A program made the translations under genes and the position numbers. Positions 22,067 through 64,000 of a DNA stretch of 64,000 nucleotides are shown piece after piece; the first letter of the stretch is position 1; each line of letters begins with the position of its first letter. Source of the stretch: a virus. The stretch lies in the IMG/VR virus record IMGVR_UViG_3300045988_125296. The stretch is one strand, 5' to 3'. The notes under the pieces were generated by a model. The model ran no database searches. It saw only the letters and a program-made list of their open reading frames with translations, and was not told where the DNA came from.

Positions 22067-22417
22067 ATGAAAACTCAGGAAATAATCGAAACAATCAAAA
22101 TCGGATTTGACAAGCCGAAATTGTACAAACGTTCTATCTGGAACAAAGCTGTAAAAGTAATGGAGTTCTTATCTGACAATGCCAATGGCGAAATTACGAG
22201 GACCAATCTTGGTTCGGGTCTTGAAAAATATAAAGCCGAAGTCGAAGTAAATGATGAACAGTTAGCTGTATGGGCTTTATCGTATAAACGGCATTTAGGA
22301 ATTCCCATCACTTTCAGCGAAGCCTTGCCCGAACTTAATCGTATCTCAAAAGAACTCGGAGTCCCTGTAAATAATGGACTTGTTCTTATCGAATATAATA
22401 ACAGACATTCTAATTAA
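22067..22417 (+). CDS. hypothetical protein
   Basis: 116-aa ORF. Confidence 0.6.
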   Translation: MKTQEIIETIKIGFDKPKLYKRSIWNKAVKVMEFLSDNANGEITRTNLGSGLEKYKAEVEVNDEQLAVWALSYKRHLGIPITFSEALPELNRISKELGVPVNNGLVLIEYNNRHSN

Positions 22418-22436
22418 CCCCTATAAACTATATCAC

Positions 22437-23858
22437 ATGGAAACTAAAAAACTTATCAGCACATTGAAAGGATTTAAAACTCGCTTTACTAAAAATCCGA
22501 ATGCAGAACTTGAAAAGAAATCCGTTGAAGGACTTGCCGAATCTTTCGGTGGCAAACTTGAAACGCTTGCAATACTTAAAGAACAAGGATGTGAAGAACT
22601 TAAAGAATATGTCAGAGGAGTGTTCGGTATGGCTTTAAGTTCTAAACCGATGGGAAAAGTTGTTTCTGTTGACGAGGACGGAAAAGAATATGCGTGTGTC
22701 AACGGTAAGATTTATACGATTGATACCGTAAAAAAGACCATGAAGAAAGTTTACAAAGACTTTAAGGACATCAGTTTAGCAGACTTGGAAGTTTCTGACA
22801 AGGATATGCCGATGACGGTTTACCAAAGATATTTAAGAGATAATTTCCCTAATGAGGACGCTCCTATTAAAAAAGGGAAACTTCATTTTAGAGGTTATCG
22901 GATTTCTTGTACGGCAGAAGATGGTTTTGTTGTTGAGGACACCATGAAAAAATATGCTATTGTTGAAACTCCGTTTGAGGGCATCCCTACTCCAAAAGAA
23001 TTGGGAGATTGGTTCAAAACACCGAAGAATGTTATTGAGTCTTTGAACGAATATCATGAAGCTGTTGAACGTGGAAAGGAACTTGCACGTAAAGCTAAGG
23101 AGGAAAAAGAAAGTAAACGTAATGAAGAAGTCGAGATTGATTTTGAAAAACTTCGCAGAAAGGTTTTACGTCTTATCAAGGATTCACGGTCAAAGACTAT
23201 TGACGTTGACCCCGAAAAATTTGTGGATATTATACCTTTCAAAAGATGGCAGCGAAAAGTTAAGTCTTTGTTCTCTTTGTGGAAAAATAGAAAACTTCGT
23301 TACAATAAATTCTTGAATGAGGTTGAGAAAATAACAAAAGAAGAAACTTTCGTTATCGAAGAAAAGAAAAATAAAACTACTTTTGTCGGCACACTTTTAC
23401 CTGAACATAAAACGGTGGGTTCTTTAAAAGAAAACAAGATAGAGGTCGATGGTAAATGGGTTGATGCCGTTCCTTTTCTCTTGGAGTATTTACTCTTTTA
23501 TGAGAAGAAAGCTATGTATCAAATAATGAAATATGCGGCTGGTGAGATAACGGATATTGAGTTAATAAAAAATCCGATTGAGGTCGATAAAAGAATTGAG
23601 TATCAGAAAAAAGCTCTTGAAAATACAGCTCATAATGCAAAGGTTTTGTGCATGGTGTACGCACAAGTGGGTATTGTGGCGCCGCATGATTTATTATTTG
23701 AAGCTGACCTTGAAGTTGGAGATAGGATACTTCTTTTTGATGGAGGAAACTTCGTAACAAGAACTATTTCGTCAGTAGATAAGGGAATCGTTCTTGGTAA
23801 AGATGTTGGTTTACTTAAACTTGACAAATGGATTAAACTTCCAAAGAAGTCAAAATAA
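22437..23858 (+). CDS. hypothetical large protein with central K/E-rich coiled coil
   Basis: First ATG at 22437 (METKKLIS). 473 aa. Confidence 0.7.
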   Translation: METKKLISTLKGFKTRFTKNPNAELEKKSVEGLAESFGGKLETLAILKEQGCEELKEYVRGVFGMALSSKPMGKVVSVDEDGKEYACVNGKIYTIDTVKKTMKKVYKDFKDISLADLEVSDKDMPMTVYQRYLRDNFPNEDAPIKKGKLHFRGYRISCTAEDGFVVEDTMKKYAIVETPFEGIPTPKELGDWFKTPKNVIESLNEYHEAVERGKELARKAKEEKESKRNEEVEIDFEKLRRKVLRLIKDSRSKTIDVDPEKFVDIIPFKRWQRKVKSLFSLWKNRKLRYNKFLNEVEKITKEETFVIEEKKNKTTFVGTLLPEHKTVGSLKENKIEVDGKWVDAVPFLLEYLLFYEKKAMYQIMKYAAGEITDIELIKNPIEVDKRIEYQKKALENTAHNAKVLCMVYAQVGIVAPHDLLFEADLEVGDRILLFDGGNFVTRTISSVDKGIVLGKDVGLLKLDKWIKLPKKSK

Positions 23859-48569: not shown

Positions 48570-49922
48570 ATGACACTATATAGACCTTTACAACCTCAAT
48601 TTAAGCTCATGGTCTATGATGGTAATAAAATAGACCCTGACGTGTTAAAGACTTTACCGGGTAGAAACATTATTGATAACTATTTGGATATAACTCCTTA
48701 TGTGACGTACCCAGTAACTTATGAGGAACATGCGGACCTATTAAATACGGTTTCATTTACCGTTAATAAAAATGCAGACATACTTTTATACTACTTTTTT
48801 GTGGGTCAAAAGGTTATGCTACACGGAAAAAATCATTATTCAGATGATGATGAATTTCAGCATGTTTTTTCTGGAACAGTTACACGTCTTAAAACGTCTT
48901 TTACGGATAGTGGAGCCATCTCATTTACTGTGGAGTGCATGAACTATGGGTTTACGAAATTCGGTAAGGACAAGAAACATTTTGTGTACCCCGATAAGAA
49001 TAGTCCACGTAAATTTGCCCAATCTGAGGAGCTTTCTCTGTATGACCTTATTAAAGGTATTGCTGAGGAGAACAATTATGAGATAGGTGTAATCGATTTG
49101 TCCTCTGATTCGAGAAACGTTAAGATAGATAAGATACATATTAGGTATCAGAAAAATATGTCTGACTGGAAATTCCTTATTGACCTTGCCAGAGATTTTG
49201 GATGTACTGTGTGGTTTTCTTCTGAAAATGGGGTTGACAAGATAAATTTTGCGTCTTTCCAAAAAGCTATGCAGATGCAATCAGACATTGTATTCCTTTT
49301 TCCTCTTTATGGGGTTACTAATAAACAACTTAAATGGGACTCTACAATTAGAGATTCTGAGGTTCAATCTTTTCCTAACTCCTCACAGAAACGTCCCAGA
49401 ATCTTAAAAGAGGTTCAAATTGATGAAGATATATCTTTGGCATATTCTGTTTCTCGAACAGCTATGTACTATGATAAAGAAACTGGTGATTATAAAGAGT
49501 CTGTCTCTATGATAACCACCGATAAAGACGGCAGGCGTAAGATAACATTTTATGAACTTGATGAAGAACGAGTCAAATGGGTTAAAGAACACGACCCAGC
49601 TTTATATAAGAAAATTTGTAATGGAGGTCCTACTTCTATGGAGTGGGGAGACGACTCGACTAACCCCGAATTTTCTAGTTTCTATTATACCGCTAAAACT
49701 ATTTATGACGAGCAAACAGCTGTATTTGACAGAGCGTTTTTTGGTATAACCGTAACAGCTAAATGTAATCAAGATTTGAACATTCGTTCTCAAAGAACTT
49801 ATAGGATAAGAGGGGTATTAAGTTACCATAGTAAAGACTTGGAAACCTCTTTCTTTTTACGGGGTCTTAAACAAATTTGGGATTCTGATGGTGCATGGAC
49901 TGAATTAGATTTTATACGATGA
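48570..49922 (+). CDS. baseplate hub protein (gpD/gp27-like)
   Basis: 450 aa. Called from position after the LysM protein and before the spike-like gene. Confidence 0.55.
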   Translation: MTLYRPLQPQFKLMVYDGNKIDPDVLKTLPGRNIIDNYLDITPYVTYPVTYEEHADLLNTVSFTVNKNADILLYYFFVGQKVMLHGKNHYSDDDEFQHVFSGTVTRLKTSFTDSGAISFTVECMNYGFTKFGKDKKHFVYPDKNSPRKFAQSEELSLYDLIKGIAEENNYEIGVIDLSSDSRNVKIDKIHIRYQKNMSDWKFLIDLARDFGCTVWFSSENGVDKINFASFQKAMQMQSDIVFLFPLYGVTNKQLKWDSTIRDSEVQSFPNSSQKRPRILKEVQIDEDISLAYSVSRTAMYYDKETGDYKESVSMITTDKDGRRKITFYELDEERVKWVKEHDPALYKKICNGGPTSMEWGDDSTNPEFSSFYYTAKTIYDEQTAVFDRAFFGITVTAKCNQDLNIRSQRTYRIRGVLSYHSKDLETSFFLRGLKQIWDSDGAWTELDFIR

Positions 49923-52776: not shown

Positions 52777-53413
52777 TAATTGCATACCGGATAAATTACA
52801 AGAGTACCCCACTGTAATGAATTTCATGAGGCTTCTTGACTCGTTGCAAGAAGTTAAAACCTCTATTATTGCAGATTCTTTACGTGTAGATAATGCCGCT
52901 CTTTTAATGGATAAAAAATGGCTGCTTAAAAAACTTGATGAGTTTGGATTCTCAGATTTTCCCATTGAGTACCCTATTCAGATTATGCAACAATTTCTTC
53001 TCAATGTGGACACTATTTGCCGTACTCGTGGAAGTAAGATAGGTATTCAACTCTATTGTAGCGTTTTATCTCTTGGAGAGGTCAGTGTTTTAGACGCAGA
53101 TTTTTATGTAAGACCCTCGTTAATTATTTTAGATTCTATAAAACAAGGGTACATTCTTGCAGATAGTAAAGACGAAAAATTTTATATCTGTGATGATAAT
53201 AGCCGCATAAATCCTGAACAGAGACTTACTATTATAATACAAAGTAAGTTCTTCAATGGAGATTTCCCCAAAGAAGAATCCATAATAAAAGAATACTTAC
53301 AAAGTACTCTAAGAAACCAATTGGGATTTTCCCCTAATTTACAGATAAATTTTACTTTTGACCCCAAATCAGATTTTTATTATCATAAGCTATTAAATCC
53401 TTATTTCGTATGA
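52766..53413 (+). CDS. baseplate/tail protein I-like
   Basis: 215 aa. Called from position. Confidence 0.45.
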   Translation: MLFSNCIPDKLQEYPTVMNFMRLLDSLQEVKTSIIADSLRVDNAALLMDKKWLLKKLDEFGFSDFPIEYPIQIMQQFLLNVDTICRTRGSKIGIQLYCSVLSLGEVSVLDADFYVRPSLIILDSIKQGYILADSKDEKFYICDDNSRINPEQRLTIIIQSKFFNGDFPKEESIIKEYLQSTLRNQLGFSPNLQINFTFDPKSDFYYHKLLNPYFV

Positions 53414-54669
53414 GCAAAATTGTTGACAAAGTATTCGATGCTGGAAAAAAGATAATTCGCAGCGTTTTTTTGGGTTCTCCGAATCTATTTACAACGTCTG
53501 ATTTAAATAGACAGATTGAGGCTATTAAATATCAATTAGACTCACTTGATGACAAAGTAGGAGTTTGTTCTGACCTTGATTTTTCCTTACAGTATAATGA
53601 GAGCCTTTTAACAGTACAAATAGGTATTATTAGTTATGTGGAGACCAAAGGTTGTAAGTTTACACTAGCCCCAGCAACTTTAAGTATCAATTTTACCAGC
53701 ACTTCATCAGTAGTCTATGTACAGCTACTTGCCGATAAGAAAACTGTTACTTACGAAGATGACCGCACTCATGATATAGCTGGAGCTAAATTTGAGGACG
53801 GAACTTCTTCTCCTGCGGCTAATCAGATTATATACGAAAACGAAAAACTTAAATTAAGTCATGCTTCAACCGATGACGAAGGTAAGTTAGTTGCTATTCT
53901 TGGAATGTTTTGTTTGTCTGATGCAGGAAATATTCTGTGGTTTCCCAACTTCACTGCTAAGAATACGCCCTTAGCGTTTAGGAAATCTTTTGTTCAAGAT
54001 TTAGACCCGTCTGTTAAGGGGAGTATTCAGATAGGAGATTCTTATGACCGTGCTTTTTCCATTTTAGAAAATAAATTAAACAATAAAATAACCAGTAAAT
54101 GGACATCTTTTGGCAGTGATGACACCGTAAGATACCTTATTAAGAATGGGACCTTATACATTAAGGTCAATTCCCGAAGAATACATTATGCTGTTGCTTC
54201 TAATATGCAATTAGTGTATTTTTGTAATATAATGAGCCTTAAATATTCCAAAAATACCCCCTCTTTGTTTCAATATTTTAAGGACTTGAATATACCGGCT
54301 GAAAATTTAAACACCTATGACATCTCAGACGTAACATACGCATCTTTTTTACCCTATGGAGAGATTGGTTCATTTCCTATTTTTCAAGGAAAACACCCGC
54401 AAGATTCTCCTATACGCCCTCCAAGATACAGTTTTGCGAAAGTTTGTTTAGCTCTTGTTTATAATATTAAGGGTGAATTGGTAGATATTCAAGTAGGAGC
54501 TTATATAACGCATCAGATGCTCATCGAGGATAATAATGGAAGCTCCGCTACCATTTATGAATCTGGATGTGACGGGCTTATTCCGTGGAACTATTACAGA
54601 GATAATGTAGGTAAAGGTGAAATCATTATTCCTAATCTATTAGGTGTTTTTCCACTTCCGGGTCTTTAA
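53410..54669 (+). CDS. tail fibre / receptor-binding protein candidate
   Basis: 419 aa. Last gene of the tail block. Confidence 0.5.
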   Translation: MSKIVDKVFDAGKKIIRSVFLGSPNLFTTSDLNRQIEAIKYQLDSLDDKVGVCSDLDFSLQYNESLLTVQIGIISYVETKGCKFTLAPATLSINFTSTSSVVYVQLLADKKTVTYEDDRTHDIAGAKFEDGTSSPAANQIIYENEKLKLSHASTDDEGKLVAILGMFCLSDAGNILWFPNFTAKNTPLAFRKSFVQDLDPSVKGSIQIGDSYDRAFSILENKLNNKITSKWTSFGSDDTVRYLIKNGTLYIKVNSRRIHYAVASNMQLVYFCNIMSLKYSKNTPSLFQYFKDLNIPAENLNTYDISDVTYASFLPYGEIGSFPIFQGKHPQDSPIRPPRYSFAKVCLALVYNIKGELVDIQVGAYITHQMLIEDNNGSSATIYESGCDGLIPWNYYRDNVGKGEIIIPNLLGVFPLPGL

Positions 54670-54685
54670 TGGACGCTATTTGTAG

Positions 54686-54720
54686 ATATTTATATTTATA
54701 TTTATATTTATATTTATATA
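54686..54720. repeat. hexanucleotide microsatellite (ATATTT)5 plus ATATA
   Basis: Counted directly: five exact ATATTT units from 54686, then ATATA. Confidence 0.95.
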
Positions 54721-54743: not shown

Positions 54744-57320
54744 ATGGAAGTAGGTAGTAACCTTGTGGCAACAGAGTCTGAACTACGACATTTAGGTATA
54801 GATATTTCCACCTTAGAAAAAAATCTTACTTTACCGAATCCTGAATATGTAAATAAGAAAAGATTTGGCAAGGGTAAGATTTATGGACATATTGAACCTT
54901 ATATTTGTTATTTAAAGAAAGTAGGTTCATCTTATATTGTTCCTCGATATTACATAGGAGAACTTGGTAAGTATGGGAATGAAGGTAGAGACGTAAAGAT
55001 TCATTTTAAGTTCAAACTTCGGGATTATCAACAAAAATTTTGGGACGATAATTCTTCTGCCTTTGAAGAAAGCACAGGTATTTTACTTGAAGCTGCTTGT
55101 GGTACGGGTAAGTGTCATGGAAAAGGAACTCCCATTCTTATGTACGATGGGTCTGTTAAGAATGTAGAGGACATTCGTGTTGGGGATTTACTTATGGGTG
55201 ATGATAGTACACCTCGTAGGGTTCTTTCTCTTGCAAGGGGTCATGAGGAGATGTTTGTCGTGCATCAGAAAAAAGGCATTGATTATACTGTAAATAGGTC
55301 TCACATATTATCATTGCAATATAGGCCATGGGGATTTGGTAATAAAGAGCAGCATAGGAAGGATGCTCATAATGCCTCTCAGTATGGAGAAGTAAGGGAT
55401 ATTTGCATCGAGGATTATTTGAAACTTTCTAAGACTCAGAAATCATATCTTTACGGATATTGTGTTCCAGTTGAATATTCTAATAGGGAAGTTCAGATTC
55501 CTCCTTATTTTCTTGGTGCATGGCTTGGCGATGGAACTTCTCGTGTGCCACACATTACAACAGACCGCAGAGATAGGGTTTTGGTTCACTATTATCGTGA
55601 AATTGCGGGTATGTTTAATTGTAATCTTGAACTTGTTAGGCAGGAGGGTAATAATTCCAATGTATATAAGTTTGTTGGTAAGGAGATTGAAAAAGGAAGA
55701 CATAAGAACCCTCTTTTAGATGCTTTGAGATTTTATAATCTAATTCAGAATAAGCATATCCCGGATGATTATCTTATCAATTCAAGGGAAAATCGCTTGC
55801 AGCTTCTTGCAGGATTACTTGATACTGATGGAAGTTATAGTACGGGTTGCTTTGATTTTATTCAGAAACGAAAAGACCTTGCTTTGCAGGTTCGTAAGCT
55901 GTGTTGGTCATTGGGTTTTCGTGTAAAATTGACTAAGAAAATTATTAAGGGTCAATCTTACTGGAGATTGTCTATAAGTGGCGATTTTAGTGAATTACCC
56001 ACTAAATTGGGTAGAAAAGTTCCACTTAGAAGGCGCATAAATAAAGACTCAAGGGTTAATGGAATATCTGTTGAAAGTATTGGAGAAGGAGATTACTACG
56101 GTTTTACTCTTGATGGAAATCATAGGTACTGCCTTGCAGATGGCACAGTTACACATAATACTATTATGGCCATTTATTTTTCGATGATTCGAGGTAAACA
56201 GACAATGGTATTGGTTCCCACTTATTATTTGGCCAAGCAATGGAAACAACGTATTGAAGAGTCAACAGATTCTACTTGTATAATTGTTTCCTCTAAGGAT
56301 ACCGAAATTCGTGTGGATAGTGACTTTACAATAATTGTTTTGGATTTATTTACGTGTAGAAAACTTCCTGCTGAACTTATACATAATGTAGGCCACGTTA
56401 TTCTTGACGAGGCTCATCGTGTTGGTGCTGAGATGTATCTTCCTATTCTTGACGAAGTACCTGCCATTTATCGGACTGCTCTTACGGCTACATTTCGAAG
56501 AACGGATGGAGTTCATAAGATACTTAAATACCACTTTGGAGAGTGTATTCAGATGAAGAGTCATTTTCCACGGCCTCTTGTTTATAGTGTAAAGACTAAT
56601 GTACAAATAAGGAGTATCTTATCGAAAAATAAGAAGTACGAACATTTTGTAGACTTCTTGGATAGGAACAATGTTCCTTATTCTGAGACTAAAAGTGCCA
56701 TAGAGTTTCCATCTCTTGATTTAAGAGATGTTGCAGAAAAAGAATATAAAAAGGGGGTTCTTACAAAAACTGCTTTTCATGAAATAGCTTCATGTCTTAA
56801 ACGAAGTTCTGAGATGCCTTATTCAGTCGTTGACTCGTATTTGAATGAACATTCTGGACGTAGAAAGATTGCTATTCGTGTTATTCAAGAATGTTTGGAC
56901 TCAGGTAGAAACATTCTTTTCCTCTCAAAGCGAAAATCTACCTTGAAGGACTTACACAAGTATTTTGCAGCATATAAGCCTATGCTCATCGTTTCTGAGA
57001 CAAATTCACGGTCTCCCGAAGATGAGGATTACTTGCAGAATACTTGCCCCCTTATTTTTGGTATCTCACAATTAGCTAAGGAAGGTCTTGATATTGATAG
57101 GTTAGATACCCTTATTATTCATTTACCTATGAAAGATACCGAACAAGCTATTGGACGTATAAATCGTCTCTACGAGGGTAAGAAATTTCCTGTTTGTTTA
57201 TATCTTTTGGATAATTGCCCTATTACGTTTGCCGTTTTTAGAAATGCCCAAAAATTTATCTCCATCAATGCCGATTATAAAGGTGAACGGACTCTTTTAA
57301 CTTTAAAATCTGCCTTATAG
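54744..57320 (+). CDS. SF2 (DEAH) DNA helicase interrupted by an intein
   Basis: LRDYQ, split Walker A GTGK/T, ILDEAH, LTATFRR, QAIGRINR. Confidence 0.85.
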   Translation: MEVGSNLVATESELRHLGIDISTLEKNLTLPNPEYVNKKRFGKGKIYGHIEPYICYLKKVGSSYIVPRYYIGELGKYGNEGRDVKIHFKFKLRDYQQKFWDDNSSAFEESTGILLEAACGTGKCHGKGTPILMYDGSVKNVEDIRVGDLLMGDDSTPRRVLSLARGHEEMFVVHQKKGIDYTVNRSHILSLQYRPWGFGNKEQHRKDAHNASQYGEVRDICIEDYLKLSKTQKSYLYGYCVPVEYSNREVQIPPYFLGAWLGDGTSRVPHITTDRRDRVLVHYYREIAGMFNCNLELVRQEGNNSNVYKFVGKEIEKGRHKNPLLDALRFYNLIQNKHIPDDYLINSRENRLQLLAGLLDTDGSYSTGCFDFIQKRKDLALQVRKLCWSLGFRVKLTKKIIKGQSYWRLSISGDFSELPTKLGRKVPLRRRINKDSRVNGISVESIGEGDYYGFTLDGNHRYCLADGTVTHNTIMAIYFSMIRGKQTMVLVPTYYLAKQWKQRIEESTDSTCIIVSSKDTEIRVDSDFTIIVLDLFTCRKLPAELIHNVGHVILDEAHRVGAEMYLPILDEVPAIYRTALTATFRRTDGVHKILKYHFGECIQMKSHFPRPLVYSVKTNVQIRSILSKNKKYEHFVDFLDRNNVPYSETKSAIEFPSLDLRDVAEKEYKKGVLTKTAFHEIASCLKRSSEMPYSVVDSYLNEHSGRRKIAIRVIQECLDSGRNILFLSKRKSTLKDLHKYFAAYKPMLIVSETNSRSPEDEDYLQNTCPLIFGISQLAKEGLDIDRLDTLIIHLPMKDTEQAIGRINRLYEGKKFPVCLYLLDNCPITFAVFRNAQKFISINADYKGERTLLTLKSAL
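55113..56159 (+). mobile_element. intein with LAGLIDADG homing-endonuclease domain (349 codons)
   Basis: Begins with Cys (TGT 55113-55115: CHGKGTPILMYDG) and ends THN (AAT 56157-56159), followed by Thr. Block B TVNRSH. LAGLIDADG motifs LGAWLGDGTS and LLAGLLDTDGS. Excision restores GTGKT. Confidence 0.8.
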
Positions 57321-63683: not shown

Positions 63684-64000
63684 AAAAACTTGAACAAGAA
63701 AATGGTTCTTATTTTGTTAGAGACGTAGAGTATGATAAAGATAATAGATATATTTATCAACCGTATGGAAGAGTTTTAAACTATACCCATAGGTATTGGT
63801 ATGACGGGGTTTGCTTTCTGATAGGAGGATATTTCTCGACAAAACCGGAAGTTATGATAGAAGTTGAAAGCGGCGCTTTTGTTGCGAATAAAGACTTTAT
63901 TGACGGAAAGTGTACAGTGGAGAAATTGATAGCTCATTTCAAACAACAACTTCAAAACTCCGGACTTACGATTCATGAGGTTATACGTAATTTTAAATTA
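63677..64000 (+). CDS. hypothetical protein, 3' end outside window
   Basis: The ATG at 63677 overlaps the upstream TAG. 108 codons read by hand with no stop up to the window edge. Confidence 0.5.
   Translation, partial: MVEKLEQENGSYFVRDVEYDKDNRYIYQPYGRVLNYTHRYWYDGVCFLIGGYFSTKPEVMIEVESGAFVANKDFIDGKCTVEKLIAHFKQQLQNSGLTIHEVIRNFKL

Follow-up and report, generated by a model that had tools for sequence, protein, structure and literature searches.

A predicted PI-SceI-like homing intein in the Walker A loop of an XPB/Rad25-like helicase of a gut phage

We analyzed the virus record IMGVR_UViG_3300045988_125296, a stretch of 64,000 nucleotides (nt) referred to below as the window, and focused on one open reading frame (ORF) at positions 54744-57320 of the plus strand (stop codon included), which translates into a helicase precursor of 858 amino acids (aa) and 98.7 kDa. 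With a probability of roughly 0.9, this precursor carries a class 1, PI-SceI-like homing intein, placed in frame between the Lys and the Thr of the Walker A motif of an XPB/Rad25-like phage helicase, and the intein would splice and home by the mechanism outlined below. An initial annotation of the window had placed the intein at 55113-56159 (349 codons), and translation agreed with these borders to the base: the segment starts CHGKGTPILMYDG and ends ADGTVTHN, with ...EAACGTGK before it and TIMAIYFSM... after it. The sizes expected at that stage, ~40 kDa for the intein and ~58 kDa for the spliced helicase, were close to the computed values of 40.2 and 58.5 kDa. All features described below are located on the plus strand.

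The intein and its host helicase

Alignment with intein-free alleles delimited the N-extein at 54744-55112 (aa 1-123, ending ...EAACGTGK), whereas the C-extein (aa 473-858 and the stop codon) was assigned to 56160-57320 by Pfam, alignment and motifs. The first part of Walker A, i.e. motif I of superfamily 2 (SF2) helicases (G120-T-G-K123), occupies 55101-55112, and GTGKT is completed by a Thr encoded 1047 nt further downstream; the insertion thus falls between Lys123 and Thr, GTGK↓T (the arrow marks an intein junction), in frame with the helicase. The protein spliced in silico displayed the SF2 motifs I (GTGKT), II (DEAH, the Walker B motif, at 56406-56417), III (TAT) and VI (QAIGRINR), the last three of which are carried by the C-extein. 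In Pfam searches the joined flanks matched ResIII (6e-20) and the extein flanks also matched DEAD (2e-11), and the ResIII profile was covered over its full length (1-164 of 164) after splicing in silico versus only 37-164 in the precursor. The helicase also matched the PHROG family phrog_16, 'DNA helicase' (5e-31), and the closest solved relatives of the spliced protein were archaeal XPB/Rad25 ATPases (4e-12, aa 87-272). The Pfam Helicase_C profile scored below threshold (17.6 bits against a cut-off of 23.5), so the second RecA domain was assigned from motif VI and the PHROG match; the NCBIfam search of the helicase returned no family above cut-off. The host protein is therefore predicted to be an XPB/Rad25-like (ResIII) SF2 helicase.

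Excision of the insert from Walker A had been expected to restore GTGKT, and intein-free homologues, with which the exteins were to be aligned, agreed with this expectation. A natural intein-free allele of 509 aa from a large protein database (P0001) reads GTGKT, its Walker A region being EAACGTGKTIMAIY. It is 98.6% identical in aa sequence to the joined exteins of the window and 99.8% identical to the exteins of an intein-bearing allele (P0002). An uninterrupted orthologue of 528 aa, found in the fecal phage MT835482 (locus L002), reads CGHGK-TVCAIY, and the alignment gap is located exactly at GK↓...HN↓T. The contig that encodes P0001 (L004) is syntenic with the window at 97-98.5% nt identity, and the empty site in its helicase gene, ...GGTACAGGTAAG↓ACTATTATGGCC..., is exactly the sequence obtained by joining the flanks of the intein in its intein-bearing sister L005. 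Taken together, the P0001 allele and the L004 empty site indicate that GTGKT results both when the insert is removed from the protein and when it is missing from the DNA. Over 60 bp the L004 empty site reads TTACTTGAAGCTGCTTGTGGTACAGGTAAG↓ACTATTATGGCCATTTATTTTTCGATGATT, and these two halves define the predicted homing site. The left half (55083-55112) is identical in L005 and L004, with one synonymous change at position -6 in the window, and the right half (56160-56189) is identical at 30 of 30 positions in the window, L005 and L004.

The 349-aa insert itself combines a Hint splicing domain and, nested within it, a LAGLIDADG endonuclease, and all the hallmarks of class 1 listed in the initial annotation (Cys1, the block B His, two LAGLIDADG motifs, His-Asn and Thr+1) were found in it. 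We assessed conservation in a 70-member family alignment and equivalence by alignment to PI-SceI. Cys1 (55113-55115, block A), the predicted N-terminal splicing nucleophile, is invariant and aligns to C1 of PI-SceI. A block B with its His is indeed present (55293-55304), but it is not the Thr-based TxxH element that had been read from the T of 'TVNRSH'; it is N61-R-S-H64, an NxxH form equivalent to 'NATH' of PI-SceI, with H64 invariant and N61 conserved in at least 90% of members. LAGLIDADG motif 1 (YFLGAWLGDG, 55506-55535) aligns to LGLWIGDG of PI-SceI; here G135, L138 and G141 are invariant and D140, the predicted catalytic Asp, is conserved at the level of at least 90%. Motif 2 (LLAGLLDTDG, 55803-55832), with D239 as the second predicted catalytic Asp, aligns to LAGLIDSDG, and A233, G234, D237, D239 and G240 are invariant. 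Between the two motifs, K214 (55752-55754; at least 90% conserved) aligns with the Lys of 'VKNIP' in PI-SceI, which we take to be the active-site Lys of the endonuclease. Blocks F and G (GDYYGFTLDGNHRYCLADGTVTHN, 56088-56159) end in the penultimate H348 (at least 90% conserved) and the invariant terminal N349 and correspond to ...DDYYGITL...VVVHN of PI-SceI. They are followed by Thr+1 (T473, 56160-56162), which, from the alignment with intein-free alleles, would serve both as the C-extein nucleophile and as the Walker A Thr of the mature helicase. The predicted catalytic residues are invariant or at least 90% conserved in the 70 family members and are kept in all 12 helicase alleles, and the C1...HN↓T junction recurs in 115 of the 140 related inteins with a resolved junction.

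Profile and structure searches gave a concordant picture. In Pfam the insert matched Hom_end_hint (E=1.6e-21) and LAGLIDADG_3, the latter at 22.5 bits, which equals its gathering cut-off. The best match among solved structures was PI-SceI (phmmer E=1.6e-20), which aligned with the N-terminal splicing region as well as with the endonuclease and the C-terminal splicing region, followed by Prp8 mini-inteins. An AlphaFold2 (AF2) model built from the alignment of the 70 family sequences had a mean predicted local distance difference test score (pLDDT) of 94.9 and a predicted template modelling score (pTM) of 0.92. Foldseek matched this model to PI-SceI with a template modelling (TM) score of 0.80 (E=2.4e-28), then to TliVMA, PI-PfuI and the free-standing LAGLIDADG enzyme I-DmoI, and also to Prp8 mini-inteins. 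The order of secondary structure elements in the model fits the pseudo-dimeric alpha-beta-beta-alpha-beta-beta-alpha LAGLIDADG fold, in agreement with the Foldseek matches to the PI-SceI endonuclease domain, PI-PfuI and I-DmoI. Sequence and model together identify the insert as a predicted class 1, PI-SceI-like intein with a monomeric, double-motif LAGLIDADG endonuclease.

We also considered assignment to class 3 and rejected it. Inteins of class 3 (the WCT type) use a Cys at position 4 of block F as branch nucleophile and mostly do without Cys1 or Ser1. In the window intein, Cys1 is present and invariant, and block F reads DYYGF with a Gly, as in PI-SceI, at the position that we take to be F:4. 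The presence of this Gly where class 3 inteins have a Cys, together with the invariant Cys1, is the reason for the class 1 assignment. A Cys in the 'HRYCL' segment of the intein is not kept in the wider family, in which the consensus is NHRFLL.

PI-SceI, the VMA1 intein of S. cerevisiae (also VDE), is thus the closest solved structure both by sequence and by fold. It shares with the window intein the two-domain architecture, the NxxH block B, the two LAGLIDADG motifs with aligned Asp residues, the aligned Lys and the DDYYG...VHN end. The two proteins are, however, only ~23% identical, PI-SceI is longer (454 aa versus 349 aa), and its +1 residue is Cys instead of Thr. Between block B and the endonuclease, PI-SceI has an insertion, its DNA-recognition region, most of which is missing from the window intein. 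The hosts differ too: the V-ATPase A subunit in the case of PI-SceI and the P-loop of a phage SF2 helicase here. The VMA1 intein is inserted shortly after the P-loop of its host protein and not within it.

Predicted splicing, mobility and alternative readings

According to the proposed mechanism, the 98.7-kDa precursor would be translated in a form unable to bind or hydrolyze ATP properly, because 349 residues lie between GTGK and T. With its Walker A motif split, the precursor should not be a normal ATPase, and inactivity of the precursor is likewise assumed for P-loop inteins in RadA and DnaB (PMC6195587). Splicing would begin with an N-S acyl shift by Cys1, the resulting thioester would be attacked by Thr+1 in a trans-esterification, and cyclization of Asn349 would release the 40.2-kDa intein, whereupon an O-N shift would produce the native GTGK-T peptide bond in the 58.5-kDa helicase. 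In a cell co-infected with an intein-free relative, the free intein would cut the empty site of that relative at the junction given above for L004, and the intein would be copied in by repair from the intein-bearing genome (homing).

The distribution of the intein is patchy. It was present in only 10 of the best 120 helicase clusters, and for seven of the 12 intein-bearing alleles the nearest neighbor was intein-free, at 89-99.8% aa identity; five of these seven shared only 64-74% identity with the closest other allele that carries the intein. In the phage lineage to which the window belongs, clustering of alleles at 90% gave an intein-bearing cluster (that of P0002) of 89 distinct sequences and an empty cluster (that of P0001) of seven, four of them full-length, and the helicase intein may be near fixation or in mid-sweep in this lineage.

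The intein is also less diverged than the gene in which it resides. Between the window and the allele P0046, aa identity was 86% in the intein and 72% in the exteins. In the comparison with locus L006, nt identity was 81.7% in the intein and 67.6% in the exteins, with a synonymous divergence (dS) of 1.03 in the intein and saturation in the exteins, and in a sliding window of 60 nt identity rose from ~0.6-0.7 to ~0.8-0.9 at both intein borders exactly. Against the much closer L005 (background identity of 97.8%) we counted differences at 3 of 1047 positions in the intein and at 20 of 1530 in the exteins (Fisher p=0.009), corresponding to dS values of 0.005 and 0.044, respectively. These comparisons indicate that the intein is younger than its host gene, and this, together with the patchy distribution, supports the earlier suggestion that it is a selfish mobile element.

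The ratio of nonsynonymous to synonymous divergence (dN/dS) in the intein was 0.083 overall (Hint parts, 0.04-0.05; endonuclease part, 0.12) and points to purifying selection on both domains. For the exteins of the intein-bearing lineage the ratio was 0.12-0.13, and this constraint argues that a working helicase is still made from intein-bearing genes and hence that the intein splices. The comparison with the Bacteroides phage BS162P1 gave no usable dN/dS value, as dS was saturated. Patchiness, a young intein and purifying selection are what homing between co-infecting related phages predicts, and the intein is real and apparently still mobile.

Several points weigh against this interpretation. 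No co-conversion tract was detectable in the extein flanks: the 45 nt beside each junction had an identity of 0.73, compared with 0.76 in a control pair of intein-free alleles, and a substitution in the window is located only 6 nt from the junction. The base composition of the intein resembles that of the host gene (GC content of 0.377 versus 0.356), and GC content at third codon positions is indistinguishable as well, so that composition provides no evidence either way on a foreign origin. Patchiness could result partly from precise losses instead of gains. A dN/dS ratio taken over a deep divergence is no proof of present-day endonuclease activity in this copy, and splicing, DNA cleavage and homing are all deduced from sequence. 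Finally, the list of matches obtained with the intein alone through a word index, used below for hosts and registers, is not exhaustive and omits helicase inteins that were found with the helicase as query; the family census was taken from a library-wide search instead.

Two of these points, the missing co-conversion tract and a composition fully ameliorated to that of the host gene, would be expected of an intein that still splices but whose endonuclease is dead, i.e. a vertically inherited relic that is kept since its imprecise loss would destroy the P-loop. Degenerate endonucleases are established in many natural inteins (see also PMC8966425). We nevertheless consider such a relic unlikely, as both catalytic Asp residues and the putative active-site Lys are kept in 12 of 12 alleles and the endonuclease segment retains the dN/dS of 0.12 given above. 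Moreover, the intein is far less diverged than the exteins in two independent comparisons, and intein-bearing alleles are scattered among intein-free nearest neighbors.

The initial annotation had further raised a post-translational checkpoint on replication or recombination, which we regard as speculation. In its fullest form, splicing would be conditional on a reversible disulfide, either between Cys1 and the Cys at -5 or internal to the intein, or on a metal or a substrate, and the intein would have taken on the role of a post-translational switch that controls replication or repair of the phage. The helicase would then be active only in a permissive intracellular state, a checkpoint in anaerobic gut hosts, with the endonuclease acting in addition as a weapon against co-infecting intein-free relatives. 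There are precedents: the P-loop intein DnaBi1 of M. smegmatis forms a reversible disulfide trap under oxidative stress (PMC6195587), and DnaBi1 is reported to be inhibited by zinc (PMC7360933). The P-loop position, which rules out normal ATPase function in the precursor, and the extein Cys C119, five residues from Cys1, would also suit a switch. Nothing in the sequence requires one, however. C119, the only candidate redox partner nearby, is kept in nearly all helicase alleles checked, including intein-free ones, and so appears to be a feature of the host protein that did not co-evolve with the intein. In addition, the intein is missing from ~90% of related helicase clusters and from a sister phage whose exteins are 99.8% identical, and it is therefore dispensable. 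A regulatory role of this kind is, in our assessment, quite improbable.

Least credible of all, and rejected here on protein-level evidence, is an insert that does not undergo protein splicing, whether a permanent Hint domain of the bacterial intein-like (BIL) type or a group I intron with a LAGLIDADG ORF in frame by chance: although LAGLIDADG ORFs are common in group I introns and such introns are frequent in some gut phages (PMC7886860), the insert forms one continuous reading frame with the host gene and has the intein junction residues C1 and HN↓T, its predicted Hint domain encloses the endonuclease in exactly the way seen in PI-SceI, and a permanent insert of 349 aa in Walker A is hard to reconcile with purifying selection on the exteins.

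Relatives of the intein and the P-loop insertion site

To place the homing intein among its relatives, we searched a library of 1.84 billion proteins and counted matches as cluster representatives. The family is very large, with 16,961 representatives at E<=1e-3, and 3,989 remained at E<=1e-30. Among the nearest representatives, 129 of 141 (91%) carry the intein at xGK↓T/S/C of the Walker A loop, and the hosts among the matches listed from the word index include DnaB, SNF2 and ResIII helicases, AAA+ ATPases, thymidylate (dTMP) kinase, thymidine kinase and PhoH. The window intein would thus belong to a clade that specialized in insertion at xGK↓T/S and has reached many P-loop nucleoside triphosphatases that are unrelated to each other. 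In 35 of the 120 listed word-index matches (P0123, P0138, P0145, P0148, P0149, P0155 and others) the intein is located one register upstream, at G(K/x)PG↓[S/T]GK[S/T]TL, which suggests that the clade has moved by three residues inside this motif. The upstream-register inteins often end in ...VVRN and not in ...THN, and they reside in ATPases of ~260 aa without a Pfam domain.

Insertion between the invariant Walker A Lys and a nucleophilic Thr was termed the 'classic P-loop intein insertion' by Kelley et al. 2016 (PMC5050341), and Novikova et al. 2016 described the clustering of inteins at P-loops across DnaB, MCM, RFC and many other ATPases (PMC4760082). The junction found here, GTGK↓C...HN↓T, is of this classic GK↓T/S type, and the insertion point, between the Walker A Lys and a nucleophilic Thr or Ser that also coordinates Mg2+, is shared with TerL1-a of mycobacteriophages, DnaB-b, MCM-a and RFC-a. 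The host is unlike theirs, being a ResIII helicase, XPB-like, that is encoded by a gut myophage of the Bacteroidota type. At the analogous site, DnaBi1 of M. smegmatis is a class 3 mini-intein without an endonuclease, whereas the intein studied here is predicted to be of class 1 with an endonuclease intact by sequence. Inteins are on record in gut crAss-like phages (PMC7886860). The intein studied here is an ordinary representative of a well-known kind, although we found no prior description of one in this host protein and phage group.

More than 1,000 records of cultured phages matched, mostly through the intein. Homologous inteins occur in Salmonella Jerseyvirus genes already named 'putative intein containing helicase precursor' (e.g. 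PIZ SAE-01E2 QGZ13216), in Klebsiella phages like JD001 and in Vibrio phages, at ~37-42% identity over spans that include the intein. The Salmonella intein occupies the same Walker A position (GGGK↓C...VTHN↓T), but its extein is another helicase, an SNF2-like one, whose similarity to the window protein was not detectable beyond the P-loop. The intein is therefore all that the Salmonella and window helicases have in common, which fits an intein moving between genes.

The only orthologue found in a cultured phage is WAX08831.1 of the nearest cultured relative, Bacteroides phage BS162P1 (host Bacteroides salyersiae); the protein is named 'putative helicase D10'. It is a protein of 868 aa with the same intein (353 aa) at the same site, but it is only ~60% identical to the window protein both in the extein and in the intein, and the intein is unannotated in the record. 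A literature search for BS162P1 returned nothing. Megablast of the helicase gene against 50,697 phage records revealed no near-identical record. Public metagenome collections already contain the exact helicase protein, encoded on contigs with lengths of up to ~86 kb, under the name 'superfamily II DNA or RNA helicase', likewise with the intein unannotated.

Genomic setting, annotation and significance

The window carries genes for terminase, portal, major head protein, tail sheath, tape measure and baseplate. The helicase gene is placed after these structural genes and is followed downstream by a DnaC/IstB-like ATPase and a DnaB-type helicase; it opens the replication module of a contractile-tailed gut (Bacteroidota-type) phage of ~86 kb. 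All ORFs of at least 200 aa in the window (1-64000) are on the plus strand, except antisense ones that overlap plus-strand genes, GC content is ~36%, and GC skew is positive in every 2-kb bin. Large ORFs without a PHROG family include 1361-2863, 22374-23858, 48570-49922 and 53410-54669. The last of these (419 aa, function without assignment) is separated from the helicase start codon by a gap of 74 nt, in which a tandem run of ~5-6 (ATATTT) hexamers occupies 54688-54720. A scan for promoters and terminators around the helicase gene gave no signal above shuffled controls, the scan being of the sigma-70 type, with Bacteroidota promoters outside its coverage. No transfer RNA genes were found in the window, and a search of its six frames revealed no further inteins or LAGLIDADG motifs.

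A second candidate intein was noticed in the sister contig. The DnaG-type primase of L004 (18620-20506 of that contig) has an insertion of ~317 aa in its CHC2 zinc finger, ...AYH↓CFAGETRV...ILTGN↓CFSCH..., in which Pfam detected LAGLIDADG_3 above and Intein_splicing below the cut-off. The primase of L005 (19676-20611) is without the insertion, so the lineage appears to have two independently polymorphic inteins. The primase locus begins just past the 3' end of the window (position 64000 of the window equals 18207 of L004) and is hence outside the sequence available for the phage of the window.

Current understanding of inteins is unchanged by this finding, but recognition of the intein corrects the gene model of the helicase and bears on the naming of its relatives. 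The nr entry DAG98777.1 shares a 90% cluster with the window protein and bears the name 'Type I site specific restriction modification protein [Herelleviridae sp.]'. In the Klebsiella phages YX3973 and JD001, the gene that matches is a 'terminase large subunit' according to the RefSeq copies but a helicase according to the GenBank copies, and three PHROG 'terminase large subunit' families match the intein part alone. Homology driven by the intein thus leads to helicases being wrongly labeled 'terminase large subunit', both in RefSeq and among PHROG matches, which should be taken as a warning for annotation.

A single lineage of ~86-kb phages, with 97-99% nt identity among its members, offers occupied and empty alleles of the helicase gene, an intact target site and an independently polymorphic primase intein. 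It is thus a natural system in which intein homing, co-conversion and competition between phages could be measured in the human gut virome.

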